64,000 nt of DNA from NCBI GenBank assembly GCA_934120265.1, contig CAKOTU010000002.1, forward strand, positions 40,905-104,904, given 5' to 3'. The position numbers were made by a program, and so were the translations under genes. Positions 288-61,723 of this stretch are shown piece after piece. The DNA comes from an uncultured Bacilli bacterium. Lineage in GTDB: Bacteria; Bacillota_I; Bacilli_A; RF39; UBA660. The notes beneath the pieces are model-generated. The model did not search any database. It saw only the letters and a list, made by a program, of their open reading frames with translations, and was not told the origin of the DNA. How positions within the stretch are numbered: position 1 is the first letter of the stretch; each line of letters begins with the position of its first letter.

Positions 288-2024
288 TTAGGATCCTGTT
301 GAAGTATTAACTTCTATTACATTAGATTTTGCACTATATACATATACAGGCTGTAAGCCTGAAGATTCATAATCTTTAGCATATGCTCTTACATATATTT
401 CCATATTTTCTTCAACATCAATACTTATTTGTCCATCTTTTAAAGTAAATGATTTTATAATAACTTCATCATTCGTAGAATTCAACTTGTAAACATTAAA
501 CTTAAAGTCGTATGAATAATCAATAACATTAGTAATACTTAAATTAGCTTTACCTTCTGTTATATCTGACACTTTAATTTCTGGAGTTCTAACAACTTCT
601 ATTTTATTTGAAAAATCACTATAAACTTTTTCACCAGCTGCATTAGTAGTATAAACTCTTGAGACATATACACTATGACCATAGCTTGGCAAAACATCTA
701 CAAACCAATTAGTAGTATCTTTTACTAATTTGTAAGTATTTCCATCCACTATTTCGTAAAACTCTACTCCCTCTTTATTGTAATCTAAAGTATTTTCATT
801 TTGCTGTTTATAATAATCATTATTAATAATTATACGTTCTCCATCTCTCATTCGATCTGTCCATGAACGATTTTCATCAACAGATAATGTTGGAACAGAC
901 AAATCTCTGGTATCAATAATTAATACTTTATCAGTTTCTTCATTACTTGAAAGACTAATAAAATCTCCATTGGCTTTATAATACCCGATTTTTGCTGTGT
1001 AACGTGCTATTTTATTTTTTGGAATTGTCACCATAATTTTAGCATCCAAATCAAATTTTTCATTTTGATAAGATGTTGTTGCATTTCCATCAAACTCTTC
1101 ATTTATAACATATGCGTAAGAATTTCTATTTAAAGAAAATGCAGACCACCCTTCAGGTTTTTCTAATTCTAATTGATAAATATAATATCCATCACCTTCT
1201 GATATATAAGTTACATTTGAACTTTTTAACTTTACAGTTGGTAAGTAATCATCTTCAGGTATGGTATCAACTAACATATCACTGTAAACTTTTTTGCCAT
1301 TCTCATCTAAGGCATAAGCTTTAGCATTTATAGTTACCTCACCATAGCCACCATTAATAATGATGTTGTTGATTTCTATCGAATGCATATGATATGTATG
1401 TCCGATTTCAATTCCTTCCACATTCTTTTTAAAATCTTCATTAACGGTTGTAGTAGTTTCCTTAAAATATTTATCGTATGTCAAATCATAAGTTTCAGAA
1501 ATATTACCATTTTGAAAAATTTTTAATTCAACACCATCAACTTTATTAGATTGATCATTTATATCATCTAACAAAACATATATCATAGCAGAAAAATTAT
1601 TTTTATCCTTATTATATGTTAATGCAGTGTCCCAAAATATTATAGGCTTTTTAGGTTCTTTAACTGTGTCATTATCTTCTTCTAAAGCCTTATTAGTATA
1701 ATTTATCTTAAAATTATCTGGTGTTGAAACTATAGTTCCATTTAAGCCGTTAATCCATTTCCCAGATGCAGTTTTATAATAAATAATCATATCATCAATA
1801 GTATTTCCATCAATTGTCTTTGATGCTAGCATAATTAAGTCTGTTGTTAATTTTCCATCATATCCTTTATCTTGATTAACATCTCTTGTAAACATATGTG
1901 TACCAATAATATATGTTGAACCAGGGATGTCTTCTTTATTTATTGTTTTTGCATTTGCTGAAGTAATTCCCAAAAACATTGTAAAAATTGATATAACACT
2001 AAATAATAAAAATTTATTTTTCAT
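288..2024 (-). CDS. Secreted protein of unknown function (N-terminal signal peptide, 578 aa)
   Basis: Long intact ORF. The N-terminus MKNKFLLFSVISIFTMFLGITSANA looks like a Sec signal peptide with an AXA-like cleavage site. No recognisable catalytic motifs. Tandem with the upstream surface-repeat protein on the same strand. Confidence 0.55.
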   Translation of the reverse strand: MKNKFLLFSVISIFTMFLGITSANAKTINKEDIPGSTYIIGTHMFTRDVNQDKGYDGKLTTDLIMLASKTIDGNTIDDMIIYYKTASGKWINGLNGTIVSTPDNFKINYTNKALEEDNDTVKEPKKPIIFWDTALTYNKDKNNFSAMIYVLLDDINDQSNKVDGVELKIFQNGNISETYDLTYDKYFKETTTTVNEDFKKNVEGIEIGHTYHMHSIEINNIIINGGYGEVTINAKAYALDENGKKVYSDMLVDTIPEDDYLPTVKLKSSNVTYISEGDGYYIYQLELEKPEGWSAFSLNRNSYAYVINEEFDGNATTSYQNEKFDLDAKIMVTIPKNKIARYTAKIGYYKANGDFISLSSNEETDKVLIIDTRDLSVPTLSVDENRSWTDRMRDGERIIINNDYYKQQNENTLDYNKEGVEFYEIVDGNTYKLVKDTTNWFVDVLPSYGHSVYVSRVYTTNAAGEKVYSDFSNKIEVVRTPEIKVSDITEGKANLSITNVIDYSYDFKFNVYKLNSTNDEVIIKSFTLKDGQISIDVEENMEIYVRAYAKDYESSGLQPVYVYSAKSNVIEVNTSTGS

Positions 2025-3288: not shown

Positions 3289-3588
3289 GTGGTGGTTTTT
3301 GTGAATTTTACTCCAGAAGATGATCGTTATATATATGAATTAGTAAGTAAAAATATTAAATATTATAGATTACATAATAATAGCAAATATAGTAAGTATG
3401 GAAAAATGACACAAGAAAAATTGGCAGAGTTATGTGATTTGAGTCACAGTTTAATAAGCAATATTGAATCTGATAGAGTACAACAATCTTTTAGTTTAGC
3501 AGTACTTTATAGAATTGCAAACGTTTTAGAAATAAACATTTCTAAGCTTTTTGAAGAAAGAGATGAAAATGGTAATTTGTTTAAATAA
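3289..3588 (+). CDS. XRE-family helix-turn-helix transcriptional regulator
   Basis: HTH_XRE-like segment KMTQEKLAELCDLSHSLISNIESDR. GTG start at 3289, or GTG at 3301 preceded by aggtggtgg RBS-like sequence. Confidence 0.55.
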   Translation: MVVFVNFTPEDDRYIYELVSKNIKYYRLHNNSKYSKYGKMTQEKLAELCDLSHSLISNIESDRVQQSFSLAVLYRIANVLEINISKLFEERDENGNLFK

Positions 3589-5756: not shown

Positions 5757-7298
5757 TTAGTTATAGTTTATTATTTCTATATTCTTTTTGTGCTCTTTTT
5801 CTAATTCCTTAATAAAGATAGATTCTTTATTTTTTTGTGTTAACAGGTAAACATTATTTTTAGTTCTTGTAAGGGCGACATAAAATAGTCTTCTTTCTTC
5901 TTCATATAAAAATTTTTCTTTACTTTTATTAACTAATCTTAAAATTTTATCTTCTTCAATTTGGCTTGGAAAACCAAGCTTATCATTATTCATGTTAAGA
6001 ACAATAACATTATCAGCTTCTAGTCCTTTTGATTTATGAACTGTTAGATATCTAAGATCTATATTTCTATTTTTTAAACTTATTATGCCATCTTTTTCTA
6101 CTTTAAAATTCTCATCTACATAGTAATTAATGTCATTGTTGTTTCGACCTAAGATCATTATTGAACCATTATTCTCTGAAACTAAATTTATTATTTTTAA
6201 AAGAATATTTTTCTTATTTTTATATTTGATTATTTTCACTGGCTTTATATTGTGTTTGTATGACACCAAATCTTTTTTAATTTGGTATTTATTATTCATA
6301 ATGAACTTTCCTGCAACGTCTACAAGTTCCTGACTATTACGATAAGTTGTTTCTATTTTTAATACTTTTGCATTCTCAAACATATCTTTAAAATTTAAAA
6401 ATAAAGATATATCACATCCATTAAAACGATATATAGATTGAAAATCATCTCCAACAACCATTAATTTAGCTTGGCTTTTTTCTAAAATATTTTTAATTAA
6501 ATTAAATCTAATGAACGATGTATCTTGATACTCATCAATTATTACATATTCAAATTTATTCTTTAAACCATTGTCTTCCACTTCTTTTGTCGCATTAATA
6601 ATCATATCATCAAAATCTATTTCGTTATTTTCTTTTAAATAATTTTCATATTCAATATAAATATTTAAAGCAAAAATTAAAAACATTTTTTCTTTTCTAA
6701 ATTTTTTATATGATATAGTTCTTTTTATTAATTTAAGAAAACTACTAAAATCTTCTATTTTATAGTTATTACACTTAAATAATCTAATAAATGTTTCTAT
6801 TATTTTGGATAACTGATATATATTTTGTTTATTGTCTTTATAAAATTTTAAATAATTATCTTTTATATTAAAAAATTTATAGTTGTTAAAATATTTTAAA
6901 AGTAATTTCATATGAAAATCAGATTCTAATATTTTTATTGTAAAAAAGTTATTAATAATGTCTGATAGTAAATTATTATCTGCAATCTCATACCTTTTAG
7001 AAAGTAATGTTAACGCAAGCTTATGAAAGGTATAGACCGGCATCGAAACATTAAACTCTTTTTTTATTTTATCTTTCAATCCTTTAGAACTGTCTCGAGT
7101 AAAAGAAATACATAAAATTTTATCAGGCGAAATATTTTTATACTTTATTAAATAATTGATTTTACCTAGTATTGTCAATGTTTTACCGCTTCCGGCACCT
7201 GCTACTACTAACAGTCTATCACTTTCATCTAAAACAATATTCTGCTGTTGCTCATCTAAATAGAAACCATTTATTTTATCATTCAAAATTATCACCAA
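5757..7298 (-). CDS. UvrD/PcrA-family (superfamily 1) DNA helicase, short form
   Basis: Walker A AGAGSGKT, motif II DEYQDT, motif III GDDFQSIY. C-terminal UvrD_C motifs (VHKSKGLEADNVIV, YVALTRTKNNVYLL). 513 aa, lacks an extended 2B domain. Confidence 0.75.
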   Translation of the reverse strand: MVIILNDKINGFYLDEQQQNIVLDESDRLLVVAGAGSGKTLTILGKINYLIKYKNISPDKILCISFTRDSSKGLKDKIKKEFNVSMPVYTFHKLALTLLSKRYEIADNNLLSDIINNFFTIKILESDFHMKLLLKYFNNYKFFNIKDNYLKFYKDNKQNIYQLSKIIETFIRLFKCNNYKIEDFSSFLKLIKRTISYKKFRKEKMFLIFALNIYIEYENYLKENNEIDFDDMIINATKEVEDNGLKNKFEYVIIDEYQDTSFIRFNLIKNILEKSQAKLMVVGDDFQSIYRFNGCDISLFLNFKDMFENAKVLKIETTYRNSQELVDVAGKFIMNNKYQIKKDLVSYKHNIKPVKIIKYKNKKNILLKIINLVSENNGSIMILGRNNNDINYYVDENFKVEKDGIISLKNRNIDLRYLTVHKSKGLEADNVIVLNMNNDKLGFPSQIEEDKILRLVNKSKEKFLYEEERRLFYVALTRTKNNVYLLTQKNKESIFIKELEKEHKKNIEIINYN

Positions 7299-7520: not shown

Positions 7521-8168
7521 ATGGAATACGAAAATAAAGAAATATGTGCTGCTTGTGGAGGAATTTGTTGCAAAAAAAGTGGTTGCGATTATTTTACTAC
7601 TGATTTTGACGTTATTAATAAAAACACTATGTTAGAAGTTTTAGAAACAGGAAATGTTTCTATTGTATCTACATTTATTTTTAGCACTTTAGCTGACGGC
7701 AAAAAAACATTAACACCATTTCTATATCTAAGAGCAAGAAACAAAAATAGAGGAATTGTTGACTTGTTTTCTATGAAAACGCAATGTTCTATGTTAACAG
7801 AAAATGGTTGTTCTTACGATTTAGAACATAGACCTGGTGGAGGTGTAAATCTTATACCGGGTAAAGAAGCATGTACACATTTACGTGATCCAAGAAACGA
7901 AATATTAAAATGGAAACAATATCAAGGATTATTACTAAAATTAGTAAAAAGATATACCGGAAAAACTGTTAATACTGTTATTCAAGAAAATGTTGAAGAA
8001 GTGTTTTACCAAATCCTAACTGAACAATTTGATGGAGTACAAAAAGCAGAAATCGAAGATATTAAAAGGGGTATATTAGATTTGATAGAATGTTTCCCTG
8101 AACAATATATGAATGCAGAAAAAAGAGCTGAAAAAGATACTAAAACACTAAACAAAAAATTAGGTTAA
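7521..8168 (+). CDS. Cysteine-cluster hypothetical protein (CxxCxxxCC N-terminus; YkgJ-like Zn/Fe-chelating motif?)
   Basis: Intact 215-aa ORF with RBS tgaggtga. N-terminal CAACGGICCKKSGC plus further conserved Cys/His residues. No confident family assignment. Confidence 0.45.
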   Translation: MEYENKEICAACGGICCKKSGCDYFTTDFDVINKNTMLEVLETGNVSIVSTFIFSTLADGKKTLTPFLYLRARNKNRGIVDLFSMKTQCSMLTENGCSYDLEHRPGGGVNLIPGKEACTHLRDPRNEILKWKQYQGLLLKLVKRYTGKTVNTVIQENVEEVFYQILTEQFDGVQKAEIEDIKRGILDLIECFPEQYMNAEKRAEKDTKTLNKKLG

Positions 8169-8329: not shown

Positions 8330-8462
8330 ATGTCATTGCTGACAACAAATATTTTAACAAGTTTTAAGCGATTTGACAAGAGTTTTTATAAAAAAAGATA
8401 AATTAGTTATATACCTATACACTAATTTATTAGTTCCATACAATAAAACGAGGAGGGATATT

Positions 8463-8900
8463 ATGAATAGTTATAACTTAACCCAAGATTATTATAACTA
8501 TGTTAATAATAATTACAATCAACCTTTGTATAATCAAAATGTAGAAAAATATAGTGTTTATGATGTATACAACGGCTATATAAGAGGAAATATGTTTCCT
8601 GCTTTATACAATTTTTATAGGACAGATAAACCTTATGAAATAACTCCAATGAATGAACAAGCGGAGCTTCTTACATATGTAGATATGTATACTTTTGCGA
8701 TGACTGATTTAAATCTTTATTTAGATGTTCATCCTGATGATAAGGAAGCATTACAACTTTTTAATGAATATCGCAAACAAGCTATAGAAGCTACTAAAAA
8801 TTACGAAAATAAATATGGACCTTTACAATTAACTAGCAACTCACTTAATACATTCCCTTGGGCTTGGGATAATGAACCATGGCCTTGGGATAAGAAATAG
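8463..8900 (+). CDS. cotJB: Spore coat protein CotJB with N-terminal CotJA-like region (apparent CotJA-CotJB fusion)
   Basis: C-terminal half matches CotJB (LLTYVDMYTFAMTDLNLYLDVHPDDKEALQLFNEYRKQ...KYGPL). N-terminal Y/N-rich part has a CotJA-like G.MFPALY..Y motif. Strong RBS aggaggg before the ATG at 8463. The long 8373 start is in the track but has no RBS. Confidence 0.6.
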   Translation: MNSYNLTQDYYNYVNNNYNQPLYNQNVEKYSVYDVYNGYIRGNMFPALYNFYRTDKPYEITPMNEQAELLTYVDMYTFAMTDLNLYLDVHPDDKEALQLFNEYRKQAIEATKNYENKYGPLQLTSNSLNTFPWAWDNEPWPWDKK

Positions 8901-8910
8901 GAGGGATAAT

Positions 8911-9468
8911 ATGTGGATTTATGAGAAGAAATTAGAATATCCTGTCAATATTCGCAGAAAAGATTTAAAAATGGCTAAAAATTTGCTATCGCAATATGGA
9001 GGTAGTACTGGTGAATTAGGCGCAGCTTTAAGATATTTAAATCAAAGATATACTATGCCTGATGAAAGAGGCAAAGCTCTTCTTACTGACATTGGAACAG
9101 AGGAACTTGCTCACATCGAAATGATTGCGGCCATGATAACACAATTAGTTAATGGTGCTACAGTGGAAGAATTAACTGCTGCTGGATTAGATGCACAGTT
9201 TGCGCAACATGATCATGGAATATTTCCAGCAGACGCTTTCGGTGTTCCATTTACTGCTGCTTACATAGAAACAACAGGAGATTATATTGCTGATATTGAA
9301 TCAGATATGGCTGCCGAACAAAGAGCTAGAGCAACATATGAACATTTAATGGATTTAACCAACGATCCTGATTTACTAGCGCCTTTAGCATTCCTACGTC
9401 AAAGAGAAGTTATTCACTATCAACGATTTAAAGAATTAAGAAATTACTACCTTGAAAAGAAAATATAA
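8911..9468 (+). CDS. cotJC: Spore coat protein CotJC (manganese-catalase-like ferritin fold)
   Basis: Starts MWIYEKKLEYP, essentially identical in pattern to B. subtilis CotJC MWVYEKKLQYP. Di-metal ligand motifs EELAHIEM and EHL present. RBS taggaggg 6 nt upstream. Overlaps the cotJB stop. Confidence 0.85.
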   Translation: MWIYEKKLEYPVNIRRKDLKMAKNLLSQYGGSTGELGAALRYLNQRYTMPDERGKALLTDIGTEELAHIEMIAAMITQLVNGATVEELTAAGLDAQFAQHDHGIFPADAFGVPFTAAYIETTGDYIADIESDMAAEQRARATYEHLMDLTNDPDLLAPLAFLRQREVIHYQRFKELRNYYLEKKI

Positions 9469-9524: not shown

Positions 9525-10217
9525 ATGAAAAAGATACTCATTCTAATACTACTATTTTTTATTACAGGATGTAGTAGTAAATTAAATATCAATAACGAAA
9601 TAAACAGTATTAAATATAACGATAATAATATTTACTATCAAGATTATGATACTATTATAAATGATTTAAATAGTATAAAGTGGAATTGTGATAGAAAAGA
9701 TAATAATTATAATGAATCTAATTTAATAATAAATACTAAAGATAGTATTATGAATTTTTACTTTTCTAATAACTATTATATGGAATATAAAAATAATAAT
9801 AAGTACTGCTACACAAAAAATAAAAAAGTTGTTAAAAAGATTAAAGATACCTTAGACAATTTAATTAATAAATATAAAAATACTGATTTTATAAAGTTAG
9901 AATTAATTGATAATTTTGATTATGAAGAAAATGATACGATTATAAAGCTAGATAAAAGTGATAGTTACTTAGTCTTAGATATACTTGATGATGTTTACAA
10001 TTTTAAAATACATCAAATAGAAAGAAATAATGATGCAATTCAAGAGATAGATTTGGTATATGATAACGAACTTATAAATAAGAAAATACTTATTAGAATT
10101 GATAAAAAGAATATAAGTAATTATAAAATCAATTTTAAAAATAAGTATAATTATGATTTTGAAATATTTTTAAATTACAATGAAAATATATTTTCATACG
10201 AAATTAAACAAAAATAA
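9525..10217 (+). CDS. Lipoprotein of unknown function (N/K/Y-rich)
   Basis: Signal peptide plus lipobox MKKILILILLFFITGC. 230 aa, low-complexity. Immediately downstream of the cotJ operon. Confidence 0.5.
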   Translation: MKKILILILLFFITGCSSKLNINNEINSIKYNDNNIYYQDYDTIINDLNSIKWNCDRKDNNYNESNLIINTKDSIMNFYFSNNYYMEYKNNNKYCYTKNKKVVKKIKDTLDNLINKYKNTDFIKLELIDNFDYEENDTIIKLDKSDSYLVLDILDDVYNFKIHQIERNNDAIQEIDLVYDNELINKKILIRIDKKNISNYKINFKNKYNYDFEIFLNYNENIFSYEIKQK

Positions 10218-18056: not shown

Positions 18057-18686
18057 CTATAATTCAGAAATTTTTTTATCATAGTAATTTTCAGGATTTA
18101 CAATTGATCCTTTTACAATCATTTCAAAATGTAAATGATTTTTTAAATCGTTTTCGATATTACAAGTACCACTAGTTCCAATAATATCGCCTTGTTTAAT
18201 TTCTTGATTCTCTTTTACCTTAACATCACTTAAACTTTGATAAATACTTATAATATCATTACTATGTGTTACTTCTACAATTTTACCTAAGTTTTGATCT
18301 TCTTTAATAGAAGTTACAGTACCATCTAAAATAGAAACTACATCAAATGATGCCTCTCTTCCATAACTGATACCACTATTTTGTAAGTATGTGTTTTCAT
18401 AGTATATTAATGATTTTTCTTGATTTTCAGCTTCGCTTTTATAATCATAATAATTTTTAACTATGCTTACATCGTTAACTAAATAAGGCCTTACAATAGT
18501 ATCTGCAGTGTTAATAACAGGTACATCTTCTTCTATAACTGTCTTATTTACATAATCATCATCTACACCATTAAAACTGTTCGATGGAAACATCCCTTCT
18601 ATTAGATATAATGTTCCTAGTAACATTACAAATCCTAAGGCATATAAACTATACACAACTGCTTTTTTTAATTTTCTTCTTTTCAC
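18057..18686 (-). CDS. spoIIQ: M23/LytM-domain protein in SpoIIQ position (SpoIIQ-like, intact HxH)
   Basis: N-terminal TM anchor plus a C-terminal LytM domain (HSNDIISIYQSL, NHLHFEM). Located immediately upstream of spoIIID as in Bacillus. Intrinsic terminator hairpin agagc-tta-gctct at 18030-18056. Confidence 0.55.
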   Translation of the reverse strand: MKRRKLKKAVVYSLYALGFVMLLGTLYLIEGMFPSNSFNGVDDDYVNKTVIEEDVPVINTADTIVRPYLVNDVSIVKNYYDYKSEAENQEKSLIYYENTYLQNSGISYGREASFDVVSILDGTVTSIKEDQNLGKIVEVTHSNDIISIYQSLSDVKVKENQEIKQGDIIGTSGTCNIENDLKNHLHFEMIVKGSIVNPENYYDKKISEL

Positions 18687-18740: not shown

Positions 18741-19655
18741 TTAAATTTTTTCAATTTGAATATTTTGATAATAATATTTTAATATTTCATCATATTTATA
18801 ACCTTTTTTTGCCATTGCTAAAGCTCCATATTGACTCATTCCTACTCCATGGCCATATCCTTTAGTATTGATAACAACGTTACTGCCAATTTGATTTATT
18901 TCAAAAAAAGTTGAACGTAAATTTAAATTTTTATATACCTCACTACCCGTAAATTTTTTATTATTTATTTTAATATTCTTTATTCTACCGGTACTAGTAG
19001 TATTTAAAACTTCTACTTTAATTTTATCAGAATATTTTAAATTTAAGCGTTCATAAAATTCCTGCAAACTGTATTCTTTTGAATCGTTAAATACAGGAGA
19101 TACTTCTTCATCCCATGTTGAATCTACACTTCTAAGATATGGCAGAGCTTGTTTAAAAACATCTTCACTATTTTCTGTCTTTCCTACACTTGTAGAAAAA
19201 AAGAAAGCTTCTATTACTTTTCCATTATAAGATAAGTATTCACCTTTAGTTTCTAATACCGCTGTTTTTACTTTATTAATTCGTTCCTGATATTTATCTT
19301 TCCATTTATCTTGTAGTTCTTGATCGCTAATATATACTTGATTTTGAACTGTATCTACAATATCATAATCTTCATTTTTATTATCACTCATTTTTTTCAT
19401 TACATAAGTTCTTGCTGCTACAGCTTGGGCTTTTAGTGCTTCTAATTCAAAATTTACTGGCATTTCCCCTGCTAATACACCAACAACATAATCTTCAAAA
19501 GGAACCACTTCTACTGTGTTAGTTTCTTCTCTTTTTACTCTAACATTCATTCCTTCAGTATAGTAAAATTTTATATCATCAGTCTTGATAAATAAACTTA
19601 CGATAATATAAGGAATGAAAATAATAATTAAAATGACTAAGATAATTTTTTTCAT
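18741..19655 (-). CDS. spoIID: Stage II sporulation protein D (lytic transglycosylase, SpoIID/LytB family)
   Basis: SpoIID signature (EDYVVGVLAGEMP, EALKAQAVAARTY, HGVGMSQYGA). N-terminal TM anchor. Confidence 0.85.
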   Translation of the reverse strand: MKKIILVILIIIFIPYIIVSLFIKTDDIKFYYTEGMNVRVKREETNTVEVVPFEDYVVGVLAGEMPVNFELEALKAQAVAARTYVMKKMSDNKNEDYDIVDTVQNQVYISDQELQDKWKDKYQERINKVKTAVLETKGEYLSYNGKVIEAFFFSTSVGKTENSEDVFKQALPYLRSVDSTWDEEVSPVFNDSKEYSLQEFYERLNLKYSDKIKVEVLNTTSTGRIKNIKINNKKFTGSEVYKNLNLRSTFFEINQIGSNVVINTKGYGHGVGMSQYGALAMAKKGYKYDEILKYYYQNIQIEKI

Positions 19656-26229: not shown

Positions 26230-27423
26230 ATGTATAGAAACACTTATTTAGAAATAAATTTAGATAATATTAAAAAAAATACGCATAATTTATTACAAAA
26301 ATACAATGACTACGATTATTATTTTGGTGTCGTAAAAGGTAATGCCTACGGTCATGGATTTTACATTATTAATACATTAATAGAAGCAGGTATAAATTAT
26401 TTAGCTGTCTCAAATTTAGATGAAGCTCTAAAGATTAGAAAAATTAATAAGGAAATACCAATTTTATGCTTAGAGCCTATCAATTTAAAATGGTTAGAAA
26501 TTTGTTCTAAAGAAAATATAACTATAACTGTTTCTTCCTTAGATTATGTCAAAAAAATTAATGAGTTTCAAAATAGTATTAAAATACACATTAAAATTGA
26601 TAGTGGAATGAATAGATTAGGTTTTGATAACAAGAAAGATTTGGAAGAAGCTATTAATTTAATAAAGGAAAATAGTAATCTCTACCTTGAAGGAATTTAT
26701 ACTCATATGGGTACACTTGGAATAAATGATCCTTATAGAAAAAAGCAACTAACAAGTTTCGAAGATATAACAAGTAATATCAATCTTGCAGAGTTTAAAA
26801 TTGTTCATATTGACAGAAGCGTTACTGCAATGTGTAACAAAAAAATAGATTACTGCAACGGGGTTAGAATGGGAATATCTCTTTACGGTTACAATCAATT
26901 ACCTATTATAAATAACACTTTAAAAGATAAACTTAGAAATATAAAAAGATGGTTGCAAAGAAAAAAATATCATATTGAAAATTATGAATTCGATAGAAAT
27001 ATAGATTTAACCCCTGCATTAAGTTTATATAGTGAAGTTATAGAAATTAAAACTGTTCATAATGGAGAGTTTGTTGGGTATTTTGGCTATCTACACCAAG
27101 GAGAGGATATTACTGTTGCAACCGTTTGCATCGGGTATGCAGATGGACTAGATTTAAAATCAAATGGAGCGTATGTTTCAATAAAAAACAAAAAGTATAA
27201 AATAATTGGAACTATAAACATGGGAATGATTTCTGTAGTAGTTGATAAAAATATTATGGTTGGAGATAAAGTGGCTATAATAAGTAATGACAATGGTATT
27301 AGAGAGTTAAGCAGCTGCAATGAAACTACAATATATAAAACGATGACATGCTTATCACCACTACTCCCAAGGGTATATATTAAAAATAATAAAGTAGAAA
27401 AAATTGAGGAGATGTCTTTATGA
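26230..27423 (+). CDS. alr: Alanine-racemase-family PLP enzyme (fold type III)
   Basis: Start MYRNTYLEINLDNIKKN matches the Alr N-terminus. PLP-lysine motif VVKGNAYGHG. RBS agaggatga. C-terminal beta domain present. Confidence 0.8.
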   Translation: MYRNTYLEINLDNIKKNTHNLLQKYNDYDYYFGVVKGNAYGHGFYIINTLIEAGINYLAVSNLDEALKIRKINKEIPILCLEPINLKWLEICSKENITITVSSLDYVKKINEFQNSIKIHIKIDSGMNRLGFDNKKDLEEAINLIKENSNLYLEGIYTHMGTLGINDPYRKKQLTSFEDITSNINLAEFKIVHIDRSVTAMCNKKIDYCNGVRMGISLYGYNQLPIINNTLKDKLRNIKRWLQRKKYHIENYEFDRNIDLTPALSLYSEVIEIKTVHNGEFVGYFGYLHQGEDITVATVCIGYADGLDLKSNGAYVSIKNKKYKIIGTINMGMISVVVDKNIMVGDKVAIISNDNGIRELSSCNETTIYKTMTCLSPLLPRVYIKNNKVEKIEEMSL

Positions 27424-28643
27424 AATTTAAAACTTTAATAATTGGTTCTGATATTAATGCCTATTATATGGCACGTTGCTATCACGAAGAATATAATGAT
27501 AAAGCTCATTTAATCGCTAAAGAACCTATGAATTTCACAAATTTAAGTACTATACTAACAATAGAATATCATCATAATCTTTGGGAAAAAGAGGCTTTCT
27601 TAGAAGCTGTTAATGATTACGCTGAGAAGTATAAAGATTATAAAATTCTTATTATACCGAGCAATGATTTCTATGTAAGATTAATCGTTGAAAATAAAAA
27701 AAATTTAAGAAAAAATCTCGTTTTCCATGATTTAGACATAGATTTACTAAATAATCTTTTAATAAAAGATAACTTTTACAGTTTTTTCAAAGATTCAGGA
27801 TTAGAATTCCCAAAAACATACATATATGATTGTTCATTAAAAAATAAATTAACCAAAGAAAATATAAAAGATTTCAAATTTCCAATAATTATTAAACCGG
27901 GAGATGGAGTTGCTTATTATAAGGCAAAGTTTGAGGGACAATCCAAGGTATATAAGGTTAATAGTTTAAAAGAAATCCAAGATATTATTTCAAAAATAAC
28001 AAATGCAGGATATAAAAAGAAGCTCATTATACAAGAGTTTATTCCTGGAGGAGATGATAAACTTTTTGATTCTATATTCTATAGTAACAAAAATCATAAG
28101 GCTGAATTAGCATCTTTTGCTCAAATTGGTCTTCAAGAACATACCCATACTGGTATCGGAAACTGTACCGTTTTAGTTAATGGTTTTTGTGAATTTGGCA
28201 ATTATGAAAATGAAATTTATAAAATGAAAGAGTTTTTAGAGAATAACAATTATTGTGGTTTTGCCGAATTCGATTTAAAATATGATGAAAGAGATAAAAA
28301 GTTTAAAGTTTTTGAAATAAACCCACGTCAAGCAAGAAGTAGTTACTACTTATGTGCCTGTGGATACAATCTAGTTAAATACTTAGTAGATGATTTAATT
28401 AAAAACGAACAAAAAGACTTTGTTATCATAAAGAAAGAGTATGCGCTTAGCTTTGTTCCTACATTTGTTATAAAAAAATATATAAAAAATGATAAACTTA
28501 AAAAAGAAGTATTAAAATTAAAGAAAAGCAAAAATTTTGTAGATCCTCTAAACTATAAACAAGATAAAAATTTAAAAAGAAAAGCTTGGTTATTTATAAG
28601 AAAAATTAATTATATAAAAAAATATAAAAATAATCAGTGGTAA
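27420..28643 (+). CDS. ATP-grasp carboxylate-amine ligase of unknown specificity (D-amino-acid/peptidoglycan branch ligase candidate)
   Basis: ATP-grasp core (FPIIIKPGDGVAYYKAKF, LIIQEFIPGGDD, EFDLKYD...FKVFEINPR). Start ATG overlaps the alr stop (ATGA), implying translational coupling. Confidence 0.7.
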   Translation: MKFKTLIIGSDINAYYMARCYHEEYNDKAHLIAKEPMNFTNLSTILTIEYHHNLWEKEAFLEAVNDYAEKYKDYKILIIPSNDFYVRLIVENKKNLRKNLVFHDLDIDLLNNLLIKDNFYSFFKDSGLEFPKTYIYDCSLKNKLTKENIKDFKFPIIIKPGDGVAYYKAKFEGQSKVYKVNSLKEIQDIISKITNAGYKKKLIIQEFIPGGDDKLFDSIFYSNKNHKAELASFAQIGLQEHTHTGIGNCTVLVNGFCEFGNYENEIYKMKEFLENNNYCGFAEFDLKYDERDKKFKVFEINPRQARSSYYLCACGYNLVKYLVDDLIKNEQKDFVIIKKEYALSFVPTFVIKKYIKNDKLKKEVLKLKKSKNFVDPLNYKQDKNLKRKAWLFIRKINYIKKYKNNQW

Positions 28644-31719: not shown

Positions 31720-32298
31720 TTATATATACTTATCAACAATTTCCTTTAAAAAAGATTTATATTCTACGTCTGTACTTTCCTCTGCTTCTAACATACATAA
31801 AGGAGGAAATAAAACACACCACCAATTATTTCCTTTTCCTTCACCAATAGTAATAACTAAAGACTCGTAATATCCTTCATCATAAGTTATTCCCTTGAAT
31901 TCCTTTTCCGGAAAGTAATTTAATCCAAAATTAACCACGTAATTAAGTTTATAATTATTTCTATTAAATACATTGGTCACTTTATTGCTTATGTTATCTA
32001 AATTAGTAGAAATAATAGCTCTAGATTCATCAATATTATCAACGTTTTGTAAAATAGAAGCCATATATGATTCTACTTCATCTTTTACTTTATATTTTAC
32101 ATCTTGATCTTGTGTGCTATTGCTATTGGCTATTACTCTAAATCTAATTGCTTCATCTGGTATCTTTATTATTTCCTCACTTGCCACTCCAATTATATAA
32201 TAAATTAAAAATATTGTTATTAAAATAAATATTGTTTTTTTCATAAAAAGATTGTCCTTTCTATTTAATAGTGGACAATCTTTTTGATATTTATTCAA
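31720..32298 (-). CDS. spoIIR: Stage II sporulation protein R
   Basis: Signal/TM N-terminus and the SpoIIR hallmark C-terminal motif NWWCVLFPPLC. 192 aa. Confidence 0.8.
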   Translation of the reverse strand: MNKYQKDCPLLNRKDNLFMKKTIFILITIFLIYYIIGVASEEIIKIPDEAIRFRVIANSNSTQDQDVKYKVKDEVESYMASILQNVDNIDESRAIISTNLDNISNKVTNVFNRNNYKLNYVVNFGLNYFPEKEFKGITYDEGYYESLVITIGEGKGNNWWCVLFPPLCMLEAEESTDVEYKSFLKEIVDKYI

Positions 32299-42640: not shown

Positions 42641-43885
42641 CTACTTCTTATGCACTTTAAATACAACTTGATACATATCTTCTAAATCAAATTCTTCTGT
42701 ATCTACTATAAAACCATATTTTTCAATAGTTTTTTCACATTCCCTAAATGCATCAATAACCATCTTAAGATTTCCTGATTCTACTGCAGAATTTGAAGAC
42801 ACTACTGAATTACTTATTGTACTATTTTCTGAATCCGAATTAAAAATAGAATCATCAAATTTAGGAATACCAAAATTTGGAGATATAGTGAAATCTTTGT
42901 TAATTGGTTCTTCATTTGGAACAAATGTGTTATTAAATTCATAATCAGTAGGATTTACATCTTGTTGAGTATTTTCAGGTTCAAAAGGAGCGGTAAAGAA
43001 ACTACTTTGTTTTGATTCTGAAATTTGATCTGAACTACTTGGTTTTAATAAATCACTAAATCTAGGAAGTTCCTCTTTTGATTCTGATTCCGTATTTAAA
43101 AATGGATTTATTATAGAATCAATATCTGTTTGTGGTAAATCTGTTGACGGTTCGATAATAGGATTACTTGGAATATTTAAATTTGATGGTACTTCTTCTG
43201 ATGGATCTGCTGGAATGATAATAGGTTCATCAAAATTTAATACTTCAACATCATTTTGCATAGTTTTATCTTCTTTTACTCCGTTTAGCATTTTATTTAT
43301 TTCCTCATCTGTCTTTCTAACAGTTAATCTTTCTGTTATTATTTTATCTAATAATTTTACTTGATCTTCTTTATTTGATAGTTTTAATAAAGAACGTGCA
43401 TGTCTTTCTGATATTTTACCATTTAGTAGAGCTTCTTGAACATCTTCATCCAAATTTAATAATCTTAATTTATTAGCTATAGCAGATTGACTTTTTCCTA
43501 TTTTCTCTGCTAAATTTTCTTGATTTAAATATCCCATATCTAGAATTTTTTTATAAGATATAGCTTCTTCTATTGGTGTTAAATCTTGGCGTTGAACATT
43601 TTCAATTAATGCAACTTCAGCACTTTCCTTATCATTTAAATTTATAATAATAGCAGGAATTGTTGGAAGACCTGCTAAAGTTGTTGCTTTAAATCTTCTC
43701 TCACCAGCTATAATTTCATATCTATCACCAACAGGTCTTACGACAATTGGTTGTATAACACCATGTTCTTTTATTGATTCAGATAGTTCATTAATTGCAT
43801 CTTCACTAAATTTTATTCTTGGTTGAAATCTATTAGGTAAAACATCTTCTAAAGGAAGTTCTACCACTTTTCTATTATTATCCAT
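42641..43885 (-). CDS. noc: Noc-type ParB paralog (nucleoid occlusion protein-like) with ~170-aa disordered insertion
   Basis: ParB N-domain (LPNRFQPR, GERRFKA). HTH-domain specificity segment KISERHARSLL matches Noc ITERHARAL, not Spo0J LSMGHGRTL. C-terminal FIVDTEEFDLEDMYQVVFKV resembles the Noc dimerisation tail. Immediately downstream of rsmG as noc is in Bacillus. 414 aa versus ~283 aa for typical Noc. Confidence 0.75.
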   Translation of the reverse strand: MDNNRKVVELPLEDVLPNRFQPRIKFSEDAINELSESIKEHGVIQPIVVRPVGDRYEIIAGERRFKATTLAGLPTIPAIIINLNDKESAEVALIENVQRQDLTPIEEAISYKKILDMGYLNQENLAEKIGKSQSAIANKLRLLNLDEDVQEALLNGKISERHARSLLKLSNKEDQVKLLDKIITERLTVRKTDEEINKMLNGVKEDKTMQNDVEVLNFDEPIIIPADPSEEVPSNLNIPSNPIIEPSTDLPQTDIDSIINPFLNTESESKEELPRFSDLLKPSSSDQISESKQSSFFTAPFEPENTQQDVNPTDYEFNNTFVPNEEPINKDFTISPNFGIPKFDDSIFNSDSENSTISNSVVSSNSAVESGNLKMVIDAFRECEKTIEKYGFIVDTEEFDLEDMYQVVFKVHKK

Positions 43886-43930
43886 AATAATTCCCCTTCC
43901 TTATTCTCTTATGTTTATATCATACTATAG

Positions 43931-43966
43931 TTTGGGAAATATTTCAATAGTTTTTGGGAAATAAAA
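43931..43966. promoter_or_regulatory. Two direct GGGAAAT half-site repeats (tttgggaaata x2) in the rsmG-noc intergenic region
   Basis: tttgggaaatatttc and ttttgggaaataaaa. GGGAAAT is one half of the Noc-binding sequence ATTTCCCGGGAAAT. Confidence 0.25.
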
Positions 43967-43974
43967 AAATAAAC

Positions 43975-44679
43975 CTATAAAGGCTTATTTTTTATTTCTT
44001 TTGGATTACGTGGATATCGTTTTGATGTTGGTTTTTGTTTTGTTATTAATAATAAAGTACGATTACTATCTTCTTTTGGTAGTAAAAATTCATCACTTTT
44101 TAACAACATCCCATCTATCTTTTTTAGAGAACTATCTAATAAGTTTATTTCCCGGGAAATATTTCCTTTCATAGGAATAAAATATTTCCCAACTTTTGCT
44201 AATGGTAAACAATACTCTATCAAAATATTTATTGGTGCTACTGCACGGGCTGTTACAACATCATATTTTTCACGGTTATTTTTAGCAAAATCTTCTGCTC
44301 TGTCATGAACTAATTCTATATCTTTTAAAACTAACTGTTTTACCACTTCATTTAAAAATGTTATACGTTTTTGTAATGAATCAACCAAAGTTATCTTTAA
44401 ATCAGGATAAACTATCTTTAAAACTATTCCTGGAAATCCTGCACCACTACCTATATCACATAGTGTACTTTCTTTTTTTAAATCTATTATTCTAGCAATT
44501 GTTAGACTATCATAAAAATGTTTCAAATATACTTCTTTTTCTTCGGTTATGCCAGTTAAATTCATAACTTTATTCCATTCAACTAAAAGTTGATAATATT
44601 GATTTAGTTGTTCTAATTGTTTGTCTGTAAGTTGAATATTTAAATTTTTTAAAGCCTCTATAAATTCAGTTTTATCCAC
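43975..44679 (-). CDS. rsmG: 16S rRNA (guanine527-N7)-methyltransferase RsmG (GidB)
   Basis: SAM-binding motif DIGSGAGFPG, N-terminus EQLNQYYQLLVEWNKVMNLT. 234 aa. Confidence 0.9.
   Translation of the reverse strand: MDKTEFIEALKNLNIQLTDKQLEQLNQYYQLLVEWNKVMNLTGITEEKEVYLKHFYDSLTIARIIDLKKESTLCDIGSGAGFPGIVLKIVYPDLKITLVDSLQKRITFLNEVVKQLVLKDIELVHDRAEDFAKNNREKYDVVTARAVAPINILIEYCLPLAKVGKYFIPMKGNISREINLLDSSLKKIDGMLLKSDEFLLPKEDSNRTLLLITKQKPTSKRYPRNPKEIKNKPL
44147..44160. promoter_or_regulatory. Noc-binding site (NBS), exact consensus ATTTCCCGGGAAAT, inside rsmG
   Basis: Perfect 14-bp palindrome identical to the B. subtilis NBS consensus. Adjacent to the noc-like gene. Confidence 0.6.
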
Positions 44680-53138: not shown

Positions 53139-53588
53139 ATGTTAGAAAATTATGAAATAAATAGTGGTACATTAGCTGTTATACCAATAGATGAGTATAC
53201 ATCAAAAGTTATTGAGTTGGATAATGAGTATATTGTTAATAAACCATGTTTTGAAATAATTGATGATAGTTGTAATTATTATGGTAGTACATATCAAGGT
53301 AGATATGAAGGAACAAAAAATATGATAGGAATGAATTATAAATTACCAATCATAATAGAAGAGAGCAAAAATATAATATTTTTTCCTACAACATCTCCAA
53401 GACTAATTAATTGTTCTTGGGTTTCCTTAAATAATTTAAAAACTTATTTAAGAAATAATGAGGGATCTGATATAGTATTTAAAAATGATAGTATAGTTAA
53501 TTTTAGTATTTCAATTTTTTCATTAGAAAGTCAAATTTTACGTGCATCAAGATTGGAATCAATTTTAAGAAGTAGAAAAAATCAATAA
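53139..53588 (+). CDS. ComK-family protein (short, 149 aa) in the position usually occupied by yaaA
   Basis: YEINSGTLAVIPIDE...CFEIIDDSCNYYGSTYQGRYEGTK...LPIIIEESKNIIFFPTTSPR...CSWVSLNNLK aligns to B. subtilis ComK (YEVNGATIAVLPEE...SCRFFGSSYAGRKAGT...PPIMVDPSNQIFLFPTLSS...CGWISHVHVK). RBS gagggagg. Confidence 0.7.
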   Translation: MLENYEINSGTLAVIPIDEYTSKVIELDNEYIVNKPCFEIIDDSCNYYGSTYQGRYEGTKNMIGMNYKLPIIIEESKNIIFFPTTSPRLINCSWVSLNNLKTYLRNNEGSDIVFKNDSIVNFSISIFSLESQILRASRLESILRSRKNQ

Positions 53589-59241: not shown

Positions 59242-59249
59242 TAAAAGAA

Positions 59250-59265
59250 TGTTTCACGTGAAACA
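59250..59265. promoter_or_regulatory. parS site 1 (TGTTTCACGTGAAACA, perfect palindrome) embedded in the gyrA terminator hairpin
   Basis: Exact match to the palindromic parS consensus tGTTtCACGTGAAACa. Flanked by aagaa/ttctt extending the stem and followed by tttt. Confidence 0.75.
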
Positions 59266-59283
59266 TTCTTTTTCTATAGGACT

Positions 59284-59297
59284 ATTTCCCGGGAAAT
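59284..59297. promoter_or_regulatory. Noc-binding site (NBS), exact consensus ATTTCCCGGGAAAT
   Basis: Perfect 14-bp palindrome identical to the B. subtilis NBS. Lies between parS1 and parS2. Confidence 0.6.
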
Positions 59298-59320
59298 AAA
59301 TTTTTATAAATTATTATGCA

Positions 59321-59336
59321 TGTTTCACGTGGAACA
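59321..59336. promoter_or_regulatory. parS site 2 (TGTTTCACGTGGAACA)
   Basis: Identical to the reverse complement of the B. subtilis parS consensus TGTTCCACGTGAAACA. Confidence 0.75.
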
Positions 59337-59380: not shown

Positions 59381-59409
59381 TTGAAAAAATGTTAAAAATA
59401 TAATATATT
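59381..59409 (+). promoter_or_regulatory. Sigma-A-type promoter for the SRP RNA gene
   Basis: TTGAAA (59381-59386), 17-nt spacer, TATATT (59404-59409). Predicted start ~59415 coincides with the 5' arm of the SRP RNA helix. Confidence 0.45.
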
Positions 59410-59413
59410 ATTA

Positions 59414-59490
59414 GTGCACAACATTTATGTTTGAACCAGGTCAGAATTGGAAAATAGCAGCCTTAAGATCCTCTAAATGTGTGTGCTTTT
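59414..59490 (+). ncRNA. ffs: Signal recognition particle RNA, short (4.5S-like) form
   Basis: Single long hairpin (gtgcacaacattta...taaatgtgtgtgc) enclosing the conserved domain IV motif CCAGGTCAGAATTGGAAAATAGCAGCC (compare AGGUCAGGUCCGGAAGGAAGCAGCC). Followed by a ttttttt terminator. Conserved position upstream of tadA-dnaX as scr is in Bacillus. Confidence 0.6.
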
Positions 59491-59497
59491 TTTATGA

Positions 59498-59513
59498 TGT
59501 TTCACGTGAAACG
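59498..59513. promoter_or_regulatory. parS site 3 (TGTTTCACGTGAAACG, 1 mismatch)
   Basis: 15/16 match to the palindromic parS. Directly after the SRP RNA terminator. Confidence 0.65.
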
Positions 59514-59530: not shown

Positions 59531-59546
59531 TGTTTCACGTGAAACA
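59531..59546. promoter_or_regulatory. parS site 4 (TGTTTCACGTGAAACA, perfect)
   Basis: Exact palindromic parS, 19 nt upstream of the tadA start. Confidence 0.75.
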
Positions 59547-60037: not shown

Positions 60038-61723
60038 ATGTATCAAGCATTATATAGAAAATATAGACCTATAGATTTTTCTGATGTAGTTGGTCAAGAT
60101 ATAATAGTGAAAACGCTATTAAACTCTTTAAAACTTGGTAATATAAATCACGCTTATTTGTTTACAGGCCCTAGAGGAACTGGTAAAACAAGTATAGCAA
60201 AGATATTAGCAAAATCAGTTAATTGTGAAAACTTAATCGATGGTGTTGCTTGTAATAAGTGCGTAAATTGTACACAAAATATTAATAAAAATCATGTTGA
60301 TGTTATAGAAATAGATGCTGCTTCAAACAATGGGGTAGACGAAATAAGAGAATTACGTAATAAAGTTAATCTAGTACCATCTTTAGGCAAGTATAAAATA
60401 TACATAATTGATGAGGTTCATATGCTTACTACAGGGGCTTTTAATGCTTTATTAAAAACATTAGAAGAACCACCTAAACATGCTATTTTTATATTAGCAA
60501 CGACTGAACCTCAAAAAATACCACTAACTATATTATCAAGGTGTCAACGCTTTGACTTTAAAAAGATAAGCAATAACTATATTTTTAAAAGGTTAAAAGA
60601 TATTTGTGATAAAGAAAATATTAAAATAACAGAAGATAGTATAAGGGAAATAGCAAGATTAGCTGATGGTGGAATGAGAGATTCTTTAAGTATCCTTGAT
60701 CAAGTTTCATCATTTACACAAAATGAAATAACAGTAGAGGATGTTCATTTAATTAACGGAACACTAACACAAGAAGAGTTATCTAAATTTGCAGTAGAAA
60801 TTTTAAATAAAAATGTATATGAAGTATTAAAAAAAATCGATAATTTTGATGAAAATGGTAAAAATTTCACCAAAATATTGGAAGAATTAATCTTATTCTT
60901 CAAAAATGTATTGATAGTTGAAGAAGCTCCCCAATATTTGATTGATACGAATTATGATATTGAAATATATAAAAGTATGGCTGGAATATTATCAAAATTA
61001 GAATTAATCGATATAATAGATACGATGAACCAAAATTTATCTATTATAAAAAAAGGTACAGTACAGAGATTACAATTTGAATTATTGATTTTAAAACTGC
61101 TTAATTATGATAAAGTACAAAATAAACAAGAAAAAATAAATACACCAAAAGTAGATACAAAAATAGATATAAAAGTAAAACCAATAGAAAATAAAAAGGA
61201 ATTAAAATCGGAAGATAATGCTTCAAATAAAATTGATAATTCATTTGTACAAATTAATCAAGAAATAAAAGAAAAATTAAAACAGATAAAAGAAATAAGA
61301 ATAAATAATACTCTAGCAAATTTTAATAAAAAAGAACTAACAAAAGTAAAATCATTAGAAGATGATTTAAAACCACTTTTAATAAATTTAGATTACAGTA
61401 AATATGTATCTATTATTTTAGACGGTAATTTAAAGGCAGCAAGTGAAGATTATCTTATTTACGTATTTAATACAGAAACTGATAGTGACTTATTTAATGA
61501 GAATATTTTAAAAATAGAAGAAATTATTGCTAAGGTTTTTAAACATAACTACAAAGTTATTTCGACAGATAATATTTCCTGGGAAATAATTAAGAAAGAA
61601 TTTAATTCCCATATCAAACAGTATACATATGTTGAGGAAACAGAAAATATAAGTAAAATATTAAAAAATGAAAATAAAAATGAAATAGAAAATTTATTTA
61701 GTGATGCAATAAACTATAATTAG
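60038..61723 (+). CDS. dnaX: DNA polymerase III subunits gamma/tau
   Basis: MYQALYRKYRP start (RBS agaggtga), Walker A GPRGTGKTS, zinc module CNKCVNC, SRC motif. The 3-codon-longer GTG start sits inside the RBS. Confidence 0.9.
   Translation: MYQALYRKYRPIDFSDVVGQDIIVKTLLNSLKLGNINHAYLFTGPRGTGKTSIAKILAKSVNCENLIDGVACNKCVNCTQNINKNHVDVIEIDAASNNGVDEIRELRNKVNLVPSLGKYKIYIIDEVHMLTTGAFNALLKTLEEPPKHAIFILATTEPQKIPLTILSRCQRFDFKKISNNYIFKRLKDICDKENIKITEDSIREIARLADGGMRDSLSILDQVSSFTQNEITVEDVHLINGTLTQEELSKFAVEILNKNVYEVLKKIDNFDENGKNFTKILEELILFFKNVLIVEEAPQYLIDTNYDIEIYKSMAGILSKLELIDIIDTMNQNLSIIKKGTVQRLQFELLILKLLNYDKVQNKQEKINTPKVDTKIDIKVKPIENKKELKSEDNASNKIDNSFVQINQEIKEKLKQIKEIRINNTLANFNKKELTKVKSLEDDLKPLLINLDYSKYVSIILDGNLKAASEDYLIYVFNTETDSDLFNENILKIEEIIAKVFKHNYKVISTDNISWEIIKKEFNSHIKQYTYVEETENISKILKNENKNEIENLFSDAINYN
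61574..61587. promoter_or_regulatory. NBS-like site ATTTCCTGGGAAAT (1 mismatch) inside dnaX
   Basis: 13/14 match to the NBS consensus. The central CCCGGG is degenerate to CCTGGG. Confidence 0.3.

Follow-up and report, generated by a model that had tools for sequence, protein, structure and literature searches.

According to the model based on the Bacillus, Staphylococcus and Geobacillus proteins, Noc tethers DNA bound at the Noc-binding sequence (NBS) to the membrane through an N-terminal helix released by cytidine triphosphate (CTP), and excludes the divisome. All Noc homologues examined had the membrane helix; membrane binding requires each of its residues F5, F8 and F9, and a heterologous helix can replace it (Adams 2015, PMC4331003). 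The CTP-switch model of Noc was likewise built on the N-terminal helix (Jalal 2021, PMC8429893). We analysed a 64-kb stretch of DNA (the window, with coordinates counted from its first nucleotide), which encodes on the minus strand, next to rsmG, a long ParB paralog of 414 aa (42641..43885). We are confident that this protein (the window protein) is an NBS-binding, Noc-type ParB paralog and the positional ortholog of noc. This Noc probably works differently from the textbook Noc, because it has no N-terminal helix, contains a long acidic linker, and has NBS sites interleaved with parS sites.

Noc-type identity and architecture of the window protein

The assignment was based on Pfam, TIGR04285, PDB matches, AlphaFold models and a tree. 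ParB_N (PF02195) and HTH_ParB (PF17762) were matched in the open reading frame (ORF) 42641-43885 with E ~1e-34 (Pfam); residues 1-205 comprise the CTP-binding N-terminal domain and the helix-turn-helix (HTH) DNA-binding domain, and residues 371-414 the C-terminal dimerisation domain. The top NCBIfam match was TIGR04285 (nucleoid_noc), which scored 291 bits over model positions 1-207, ~100 bits over the generic ParB model. The C-terminal 55 aa alone matched positions 212-255 of TIGR04285 (E = 0.02), i.e., the C-terminal domain aligns with the C-terminal part of the Noc model. Among PDB sequences the best matches were the Noc entries 7NG0 and 7NFU, and the ranking was Geobacillus Noc (220 bits), B. 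subtilis Noc (191 bits), Spo0J (181 bits). In a neighbour-joining tree of the N-terminal 200 aa, the long proteins of this lineage grouped with B. subtilis and Geobacillus Noc, and the lineage's own Spo0J proteins joined B. subtilis Spo0J with 100% bootstrap.

The four specificity positions 173, 179, 184 and 201 read QKKR in Noc and RTAG in ParB. The window protein has Q-K-N-R, a combination present in 109 of the 121 close relatives and in 116 of the 150 representatives of clusters, and the Spo0J proteins of the lineage have R-(I/M)-x-G. Since Q173 reads A1, R201 reads C6 and the permissive role needs only one Lys, at either 179 or 184 (Jalal 2020, PMC7383237), the specificity of the window protein is Noc-like rather than Spo0J-like. 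The CTP boxes GERRxxA and ENVQR are invariant across the family, and residues G61, E62, R63, R64, E95, N96, Q98 and R99 are invariant in a 70-member alignment; with these motifs intact, the window protein would be a CTP-dependent clamp. Two findings speak against the assignment: the score of 291 bits falls narrowly short of the curated TIGR04285 cutoff of 315 bits, as does the 303 bits obtained across the whole model (1-255/255) when the linker was cut out in silico, and K184 is replaced by N.

The window protein begins MDNNRKVVELPL, with residue 3 aligned to residue 26 of B. subtilis Noc, and 16 residues precede its PNRFQPR sequence. A longer N-terminus is impossible, as no in-frame start codon lies between the preceding stop and the start of the ORF. 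All 121 close members have PNRFQPR beginning at residue 15-18, and the 150 representatives have it at residue 15-26; an N-terminal amphipathic helix was found neither in the window protein nor in any of these relatives. The α2 helix that follows the N-terminal helix is likewise absent from the window protein, where a hydrophobic-moment scan for an amphipathic helix elsewhere flagged the helices of the folded domains only. With the helix and α2 lost, the textbook route, in which the N-terminal helix is released by CTP, is therefore closed to this Noc.

The two folded parts of the window protein (1-205 and 371-414) are separated by residues ~205-370, for which the AlphaFold model has a predicted local distance difference test score (pLDDT) below 50; the equivalent linker of P0117, a canonical PGKFFN member of the family, also has a pLDDT below 50, with folded domains on either side. 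S, N, P, E, I and D are abundant in the linker of the window protein, whose net charge is -24 over 157 aa. We surveyed the family using the best 150 representatives at 50% identity and analysed the linkers of 148 of them. The architecture with no helix and a long linker was found in at least 150 protein clusters (50% identity) of 291-848 aa, and the median length of the 148 proteins with an analysable linker was 551 aa. The linkers measure ~140-270 aa and reach >600 aa, with a mean charge of -0.14 to -0.18 per residue. An origin of the linker as a DNA tandem repeat or slippage artefact was considered and rejected, as Tandem Repeats Finder detected only a 24-bp, 1.9-copy trace. Most of this architecture had been anticipated in the earlier note, which described Noc-like specificity residues, a Noc-like C-terminal tail, the lack of the N-terminal amphipathic helix, and a low-complexity insertion of ~170 aa between the DNA-binding and C-terminal domains. 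All four descriptions hold, and the insertion, of ~165 aa, is genuine, lineage-wide and disordered according to the AlphaFold model.

Short motifs of the linker are conserved in order across the representatives. NPGF[LM]D[IV]DK[IL] was found in 64 of 148 linkers (0.1 expected from shuffled sequences) and PGKFFN-phi in 37 of 148 (0 expected); [FN][IL]PSSP[IL][IL][DE] and KNFDP[IL][IL]P occurred in the 148 linkers well over the shuffled expectation, and [ILV]PxF[DE][DE] had 237 occurrences in the linkers of close relatives vs 20 in shuffled ones. The last motif could mimic the FtsZ C-terminal peptide; FtsZ was not found in the window or the related loci, and we do not rely on this likeness. In an alignment of 70 sequences, F296 alone among the linker residues is invariant.

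In the window, noc is adjoined by rsmG and followed downstream by the pyruvate kinase gene. A tblastn search found no soj and no second parB in the whole 64 kb, which covers 42 kb downstream and 20 kb upstream of noc; pyk rather than soj-spo0J is the downstream neighbour, as first described. The order rsmG-noc-soj-spo0J is kept in six related loci (L067, L068, L070, L071, L072 and L079), where the Spo0J that follows soj has 292-297 aa and the N-terminal peptide RRALGRGLEELF. In three others (L025, L026 and L028) soj-spo0J lies ~4-5 kb downstream of noc and in one (L008) ~8 kb upstream; the distance is greater in the window and in most relatives.

Noc-binding sequences, parS sites and the noc promoter

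The window has two exact copies of the sequence ATTTCCCGGGAAAT (44147-44160 and 59284-59297) and one copy with a single mismatch (61574-61587), and at all three sites the T...A flanks of the 16-bp NBS are present. The first exact copy of the 16-bp NBS, TATTTCCCGGGAAATA (44146..44161), lies ~270 bp upstream of noc and within the 3' part of rsmG, where its codons read I-S-R-E-I. The second (59283..59298) lies between parS 1 and parS 2, at centre-to-centre distances of 33 and 38 bp. The one-mismatch, NBS-like site TATTTCCTGGGAAATA (61573..61588; motif scan) is in dnaX. When up to two mismatches were allowed, 0.18 NBS matches were expected in the window, and three matches were reached in 0 of 100 shuffles. 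In 1.49 Mb of related loci the NBS had 13 exact and 18 one-mismatch copies, and every other matched palindrome had 0; the control consisted of 140 palindromes derived from permutations of the NBS half-site composition, and the site counts cover the 64-kb window and loci of up to ~20 kb. Both exact sites, in rsmG at 44147 and between parS 1 and parS 2 at 59284, had been listed before and are confirmed, and an NBS frequency above chance is upheld in the window and in the related loci.

The NBS in rsmG is under selection at the DNA level. It is encoded with rare codons: among the 336 Arg codons of 18 window genes the only CGG is the one in this site, and TCC makes up 14 of 498 Ser codons. At the homologous position close relatives have ISREI, ISQEI or IAQEI (0, 1 and 2 NBS mismatches, respectively), and distant relatives have unrelated residues, e.g., IEEEI or INDEL. 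Because only the close relatives keep NBS-compatible residues, the protein sequence at this site is dictated by the DNA motif.

The site in dnaX, read as I-S-W-E-I, shows the same coding trick as I-S-R-E-I in rsmG. An additional NBS half-site is located at 44183-44190, 22 bp from the rsmG NBS. The distant relatives L069, L071 and L077 each have an exact NBS at ~5860-5920, which is ~4.1 kb upstream of noc and may be another intragenic NBS of conserved position.

The parS sites of the window form a cluster at gyrA-SRP RNA-tadA, ~9 kb from dnaA. An exact copy of TGTTTCACGTGAAACA, parS 1 (59250..59265), directly follows the gyrA stop codon; a motif scan added parS 2 (59321..59336) and parS 3 (59498..59513), each with one mismatch, and parS 4 (59531..59546), which is exact. 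From these four near-perfect sites we infer that Spo0J is encoded elsewhere in the genome. The gene for the small signal recognition particle (SRP) RNA lies inside the cluster on the plus strand (59406..59502; Rfam RF00169, 55.4 bits), and parS 3 overlaps its final 5 nt as called by Rfam. The parS 1 site is embedded in an extended perfect palindrome, AGAATGTTTCACGTGAAACATTCT (59245-59275), which lies 4 nt past the gyrA stop codon and is followed by TTTTC. By eye, this palindrome looks like a terminator hairpin doubling as parS; it went unflagged in a simple terminator scan.

Scanning metagenomes for an exact parS located 5-35 bp from an exact NBS gave at least 120 loci. The following figures apply to the matches listed. 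The gyrA/tadA/dnaX synteny was found in 116 of 120 loci, the GC content was 0.22-0.31 for nearly all, and the SRP RNA gene was in or beside the cluster in 11 of the 13 loci tested. Exact NBS copies numbered 242 in 85 kb of parS clusters vs 46 in the other 638 kb, and 286 of the 288 exact copies had the T...A flanks. The distances between the centres of an NBS and the nearest parS peaked at 25-29 and 35-37 bp, approximately one helical turn apart. The low-GC contigs carry interleaved runs of parS and NBS between gyrA and tadA, which in part are true tandem arrays. In L122 (1-320) a 72-bp tandem unit contains one exact parS and one exact NBS; L157 has a 106-bp unit in 5.5 copies (2090-2674) and a 104-bp unit in 2.5 copies (3304-3566), each with one NBS and one parS; the units of L088 and L082 measure 260-400 bp and hold one exact copy of either site, and L151 and L180 likewise contain tandem parS and NBS arrays.

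Upstream of noc the window sequence is tATTTCCCaaaaactaTTGAAAtATTTCCCaaactaTAGTATGAT. A consensus scan identified a promoter-like element on the minus strand (43919..43947), consisting of TTGAAA, a 17-nt spacer and TATGAT (10/12 consensus positions). Two NBS half-sites ATTTCCC, arranged as direct repeats 22 bp apart, bracket the -35-like hexamer: one lies in the promoter spacer (43934..43940, minus strand, about -55 from the ATG) and the other just upstream of the -35 element (43956..43962, minus strand, about -77). The TTG...TAtAgTAT layout is conserved in relatives, and 68 of 80 relatives have half-sites within 150 bp upstream of noc, where their density is 12.3 per kb vs 0.31 per kb overall and their positions concentrate at -80..-71 and -60..-51. 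Some sublineages have the upstream half-site inverted, or both half-sites fused as GGGAAATATTTCCC; others carry a full NBS 75-90 bp upstream of noc. The simplest reading that the half-sites suggest is autoregulation of noc.

Candidate roles of the long-linker Noc

We propose that the Noc ortholog of this lineage would act as a DNA clamp of the ParB family whose recognition sequence is the 16-bp NBS of Bacillus Noc. It would most likely load at the NBS packed between the parS sites of the conserved, centromere-like gyrA-SRP RNA-tadA cluster, and most likely also at the NBS inside rsmG beside its own gene and at scattered origin-proximal sites. The linker motifs would recruit one or more partner proteins or, in the case of one motif, possibly the membrane, and in this way the Noc-coated origin region next to ParB would be linked to the envelope or the division apparatus. 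Binding to the half-site pair that flanks the -35 element would repress transcription of noc itself. DNA binding, CTP dependence, partner recruitment, cellular role and autoregulation are all predictions from sequence. We lean, by a modest degree, towards the combination of a CTP clamp, no N-terminal membrane binding, a partner-recruiting acidic linker, co-loading with ParB at a composite centromere, and self-regulation. More doubtful, and offered as a tentative proposal, is the idea that Noc has been rebuilt here as an organiser or tether of the origin region that works with ParB, instead of a chromosome-wide, membrane-tethering occlusion factor. In this view the helix would have given way to the long acidic linker with its ordered binding motifs, one of them perhaps the relocated helix core; Noc and ParB would load at the phased NBS and parS sites of a composite, in places tandemly amplified centromere next to the SRP RNA gene; and Noc would control its own promoter via the half-sites.

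Several points weaken these interpretations. The family is known from sequences and predicted models. None of the linker motifs formed a stable helix or docked in the AlphaFold models of the window protein and of P0117, so it is conservation of the motifs that suggests the recruitment of partners. The FF motif is degenerate in the subclade of the window (SSFFTAPF, which has no Lys and includes a Pro). Neither soj nor spo0J was found in the window, and their presence in the genome is deduced from the parS sites. As the metagenome scan demanded juxtaposition of parS and NBS, its counts reflect recurrence and positional conservation, not genome-wide frequency. Finally, in one locus with a GC content of 0.48 (L194, 6296-6572) an NBS lies 12 bp from a parS, followed by a second parS and then by SRP RNA-tadA-dnaX, so that the juxtaposition may be older than the long-linker clade.

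Direct membrane tethering could have been kept if the linker motif PG[KR]FFN-phi-phi, with the acidic run behind it, replaced the N-terminal helix, in which B. subtilis Noc has K2, F5, R7, F8 and F9. The likeness of PG[KR]FFN-phi to the R7-F8-F9 core of that helix is a lead that sequence comparison offers. Of 282 family proteins, 162 have [KR]FF[NSDGT] in the linker, with strongly conserved flanks; the motif and the acidic residues after it have a hydrophobic moment of 0.44-0.60 (mean hydrophobicity ~0.1), in the same range as residues 1-11 of B. subtilis Noc (0.43-0.46); F296 is invariant; and F5, F8 and F9 are each essential in a helix that a heterologous one can replace (Adams 2015). We nevertheless consider such a relocated anchor unlikely. 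The likeness spans 3-5 residues only, and the motif is degenerate in the window protein itself. With Pro-Gly before it and an acidic run after it, the motif sits in a linker with ~-0.15 charges per residue, which anionic membranes should repel, and AlphaFold predicts no helix at the motif (in P0117 the PGKFFN region has a pLDDT of ~44 and no secondary structure). Alternatively, general occlusion could have been lost and Noc clamps placed between ParB clamps could shape, insulate or anchor the ParB/SMC loading zone, for example, to anchor the origin during sporulation in the manner of RacA or RicO. The interleaving of NBS and parS at a conserved locus with preferred spacing, the amplification of parS and NBS in tandem, the loss of the membrane helix and a spore-forming host would all suit a centromere component of this kind. 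However, NBS also occur in rsmG, in dnaX and, among the matches listed, 46 times in 638 kb of flanking DNA, as expected for a chromosome-wide factor, and the protein has no known partner and no link to sporulation; we regard this explanation as quite improbable.

A chiefly transcriptional, KorB-like repressor that uses NBS sites and half-sites as operators would account for the half-site pair around the -35 element in 68 of 80 relatives and for the full NBS upstream of noc in other sublineages. Most NBS, however, are intragenic or in the parS cluster and not at promoters, and autoregulation fits every other role as well, which makes such a repressor very unlikely. Finally, the protein belongs to the ParB family and has soj-spo0J next to it in some relatives, so that it might serve as a second partition ParB alongside Soj; it might also be an artefact of assembly or annotation. 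We dismissed both with near certainty: the protein has Q173 and R201, not R173 and G201, and lacks the N-terminal ParA-stimulating peptide of the lineage's Spo0J; 13 contigs carry the exact protein, and no fewer than 150 clusters have the architecture.

Setting of the window and relation to known systems

The window is a replication-origin region, with a sign flip of the GC skew near 50 kb and the start of dnaA at 50374. The minus-strand flank of the origin has the order rnpA-yidC-jag-mnmE-mnmG-rsmG and the plus-strand flank dnaA-dnaN-comK-recF-gyrB-gyrA-(SRP RNA)-tadA-dnaX-recR-holB. The GC content is ~27%. The host is walled and probably rod-shaped, given the genes for cell-wall proteins (Ddl, Alr, a MurA-type EPSP_synthase-fold protein and FemAB) and for MreB. 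Sporulation-related genes of the window encode CotJB (8373-8900), a manganese-catalase-like protein that is possibly CotJC (8872-9468), an M23 peptidase (18057-18686) adjoining SpoIID (18741-19655), and SpoIIR (31720-32298). SpoIID, SpoIIR and CotJB bear out the description of the host as a spore-former in the earlier note, and the sporulation genes are consistent with a spore-former of small, low-GC genome. Two ORFs, 288-2024 (minus strand, 578 aa) and 7521-8168 (plus strand, 215 aa), were matched in neither Pfam nor NCBIfam at the thresholds applied; ORF 27420-28643 (plus strand, 407 aa) had no match in Pfam and ORF 9525-10217 (plus strand, 230 aa) none in NCBIfam, in each case the only library scanned.

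Between dnaN and recF lies a ComK-family gene (53139-53588, plus strand; Pfam PF06338, E = 8e-40), at a position that in B. subtilis is taken by yaaA/rlbA. The order dnaN-comK-recF recurs in 12 related metagenome loci among the matches listed. Close relatives of the long Noc come from gut and rumen metagenome-assembled genomes (MAGs) labelled at NCBI as uncultured Bacilli, Tenericutes or Firmicutes, and one relative, Candidatus Fimihabitans, was assigned to GTDB order RF39 by its describers. Because of the ComK gene between dnaN and recF, the Bacilli and Tenericutes labels of the relatives and the RF39 relative, the host looks like a member of the Bacilli, contrary to the Clostridia/Erysipelotrichia-like placement that had been suggested. 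The related claim, that Noc is largely confined to Bacilli and would thus be new in this host, also fails, as in the literature noc is spread across Firmicutes and a dnaA...parA-parB-noc-gidA-gidB cluster is inferred in the Firmicutes ancestor. The novelty lies in the architecture and in the arrangement of binding sites, not in taxonomy. A literature search returned no report of a helix-less or long-linker Noc or of interleaved parS and NBS, which is not proof of absence; a large helix-less Noc clade, a motif-bearing acidic linker, phased parS/NBS clusters and promoter half-sites appear to be new, none of the four having turned up in the papers searched.

A clade of at least 150 clusters that keeps the NBS code and the CTP boxes without the helix is a natural experiment on the essential parts of Noc, and its conserved short motifs provide handles for finding the protein partners that have long been sought for Noc. 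From the phased interleaving it follows that clamps of two different ParB-family proteins are loaded no more than 25-40 bp apart, which raises testable questions about SMC loading, collisions between clamps and partition complexes of mixed composition. With the promoter half-sites, recognition of a half-site by a ParB-family protein could be assayed in a simple way. If the protein does organise the origin region together with ParB, it would represent a second, mechanistically distinct solution within the Noc family.

If partner recruitment is right, the closest analogies in logic are RacA of B. subtilis, RicO of S. aureus (2026 preprint) and SlmA of E. coli, site-specific DNA binders near the origin or over the nucleoid that link DNA to the envelope or divisome. 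These proteins belong to unrelated families and bind other DNA sites, and the analogy is conceptual only. KorB of RK2, a promoter-repressing CTP clamp, is also a member of the ParB family with cognate sites at promoters and possible autoregulation. It is distant, however (58 bits), its operators are full palindromes, not direct-repeat half-sites, and it works with KorA. With chromosomal ParB/Spo0J the window protein shares the fold, the CTP motifs, origin-proximal loading sites and probably the load-and-slide mechanism. Unlike these proteins, it is Noc-type in specificity and has no LG(R/K)GL ParA-interaction peptide; in this lineage R173, G201 and that peptide belong to a different protein, a canonical Spo0J of ~295 aa.

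The similarity is greatest to Noc (YyaA) of B. subtilis, S. aureus and G. thermoleovorans (TIGR04285; 7NFU, 7NG0, 7OL9 and 6Y93), with which the window protein shares adjacency to rsmG, the GERRxxA and ENxQR boxes, an HTH with Q173, K179 and R201, the identical 16-bp NBS, a C-terminal domain co-linear with the Noc model and, in relatives, the rsmG-noc-soj-spo0J order. In contrast to canonical Noc, it has N at position 184, a family score just under the cutoff, and soj-spo0J >20-40 kb away in the window. It lacks the α1 amphipathic helix and α2, and an acidic, motif-bearing linker, of 140 to >600 aa in the family, is inserted; its NBS are interleaved with parS, and half-sites of the same sequence lie in its own promoter.

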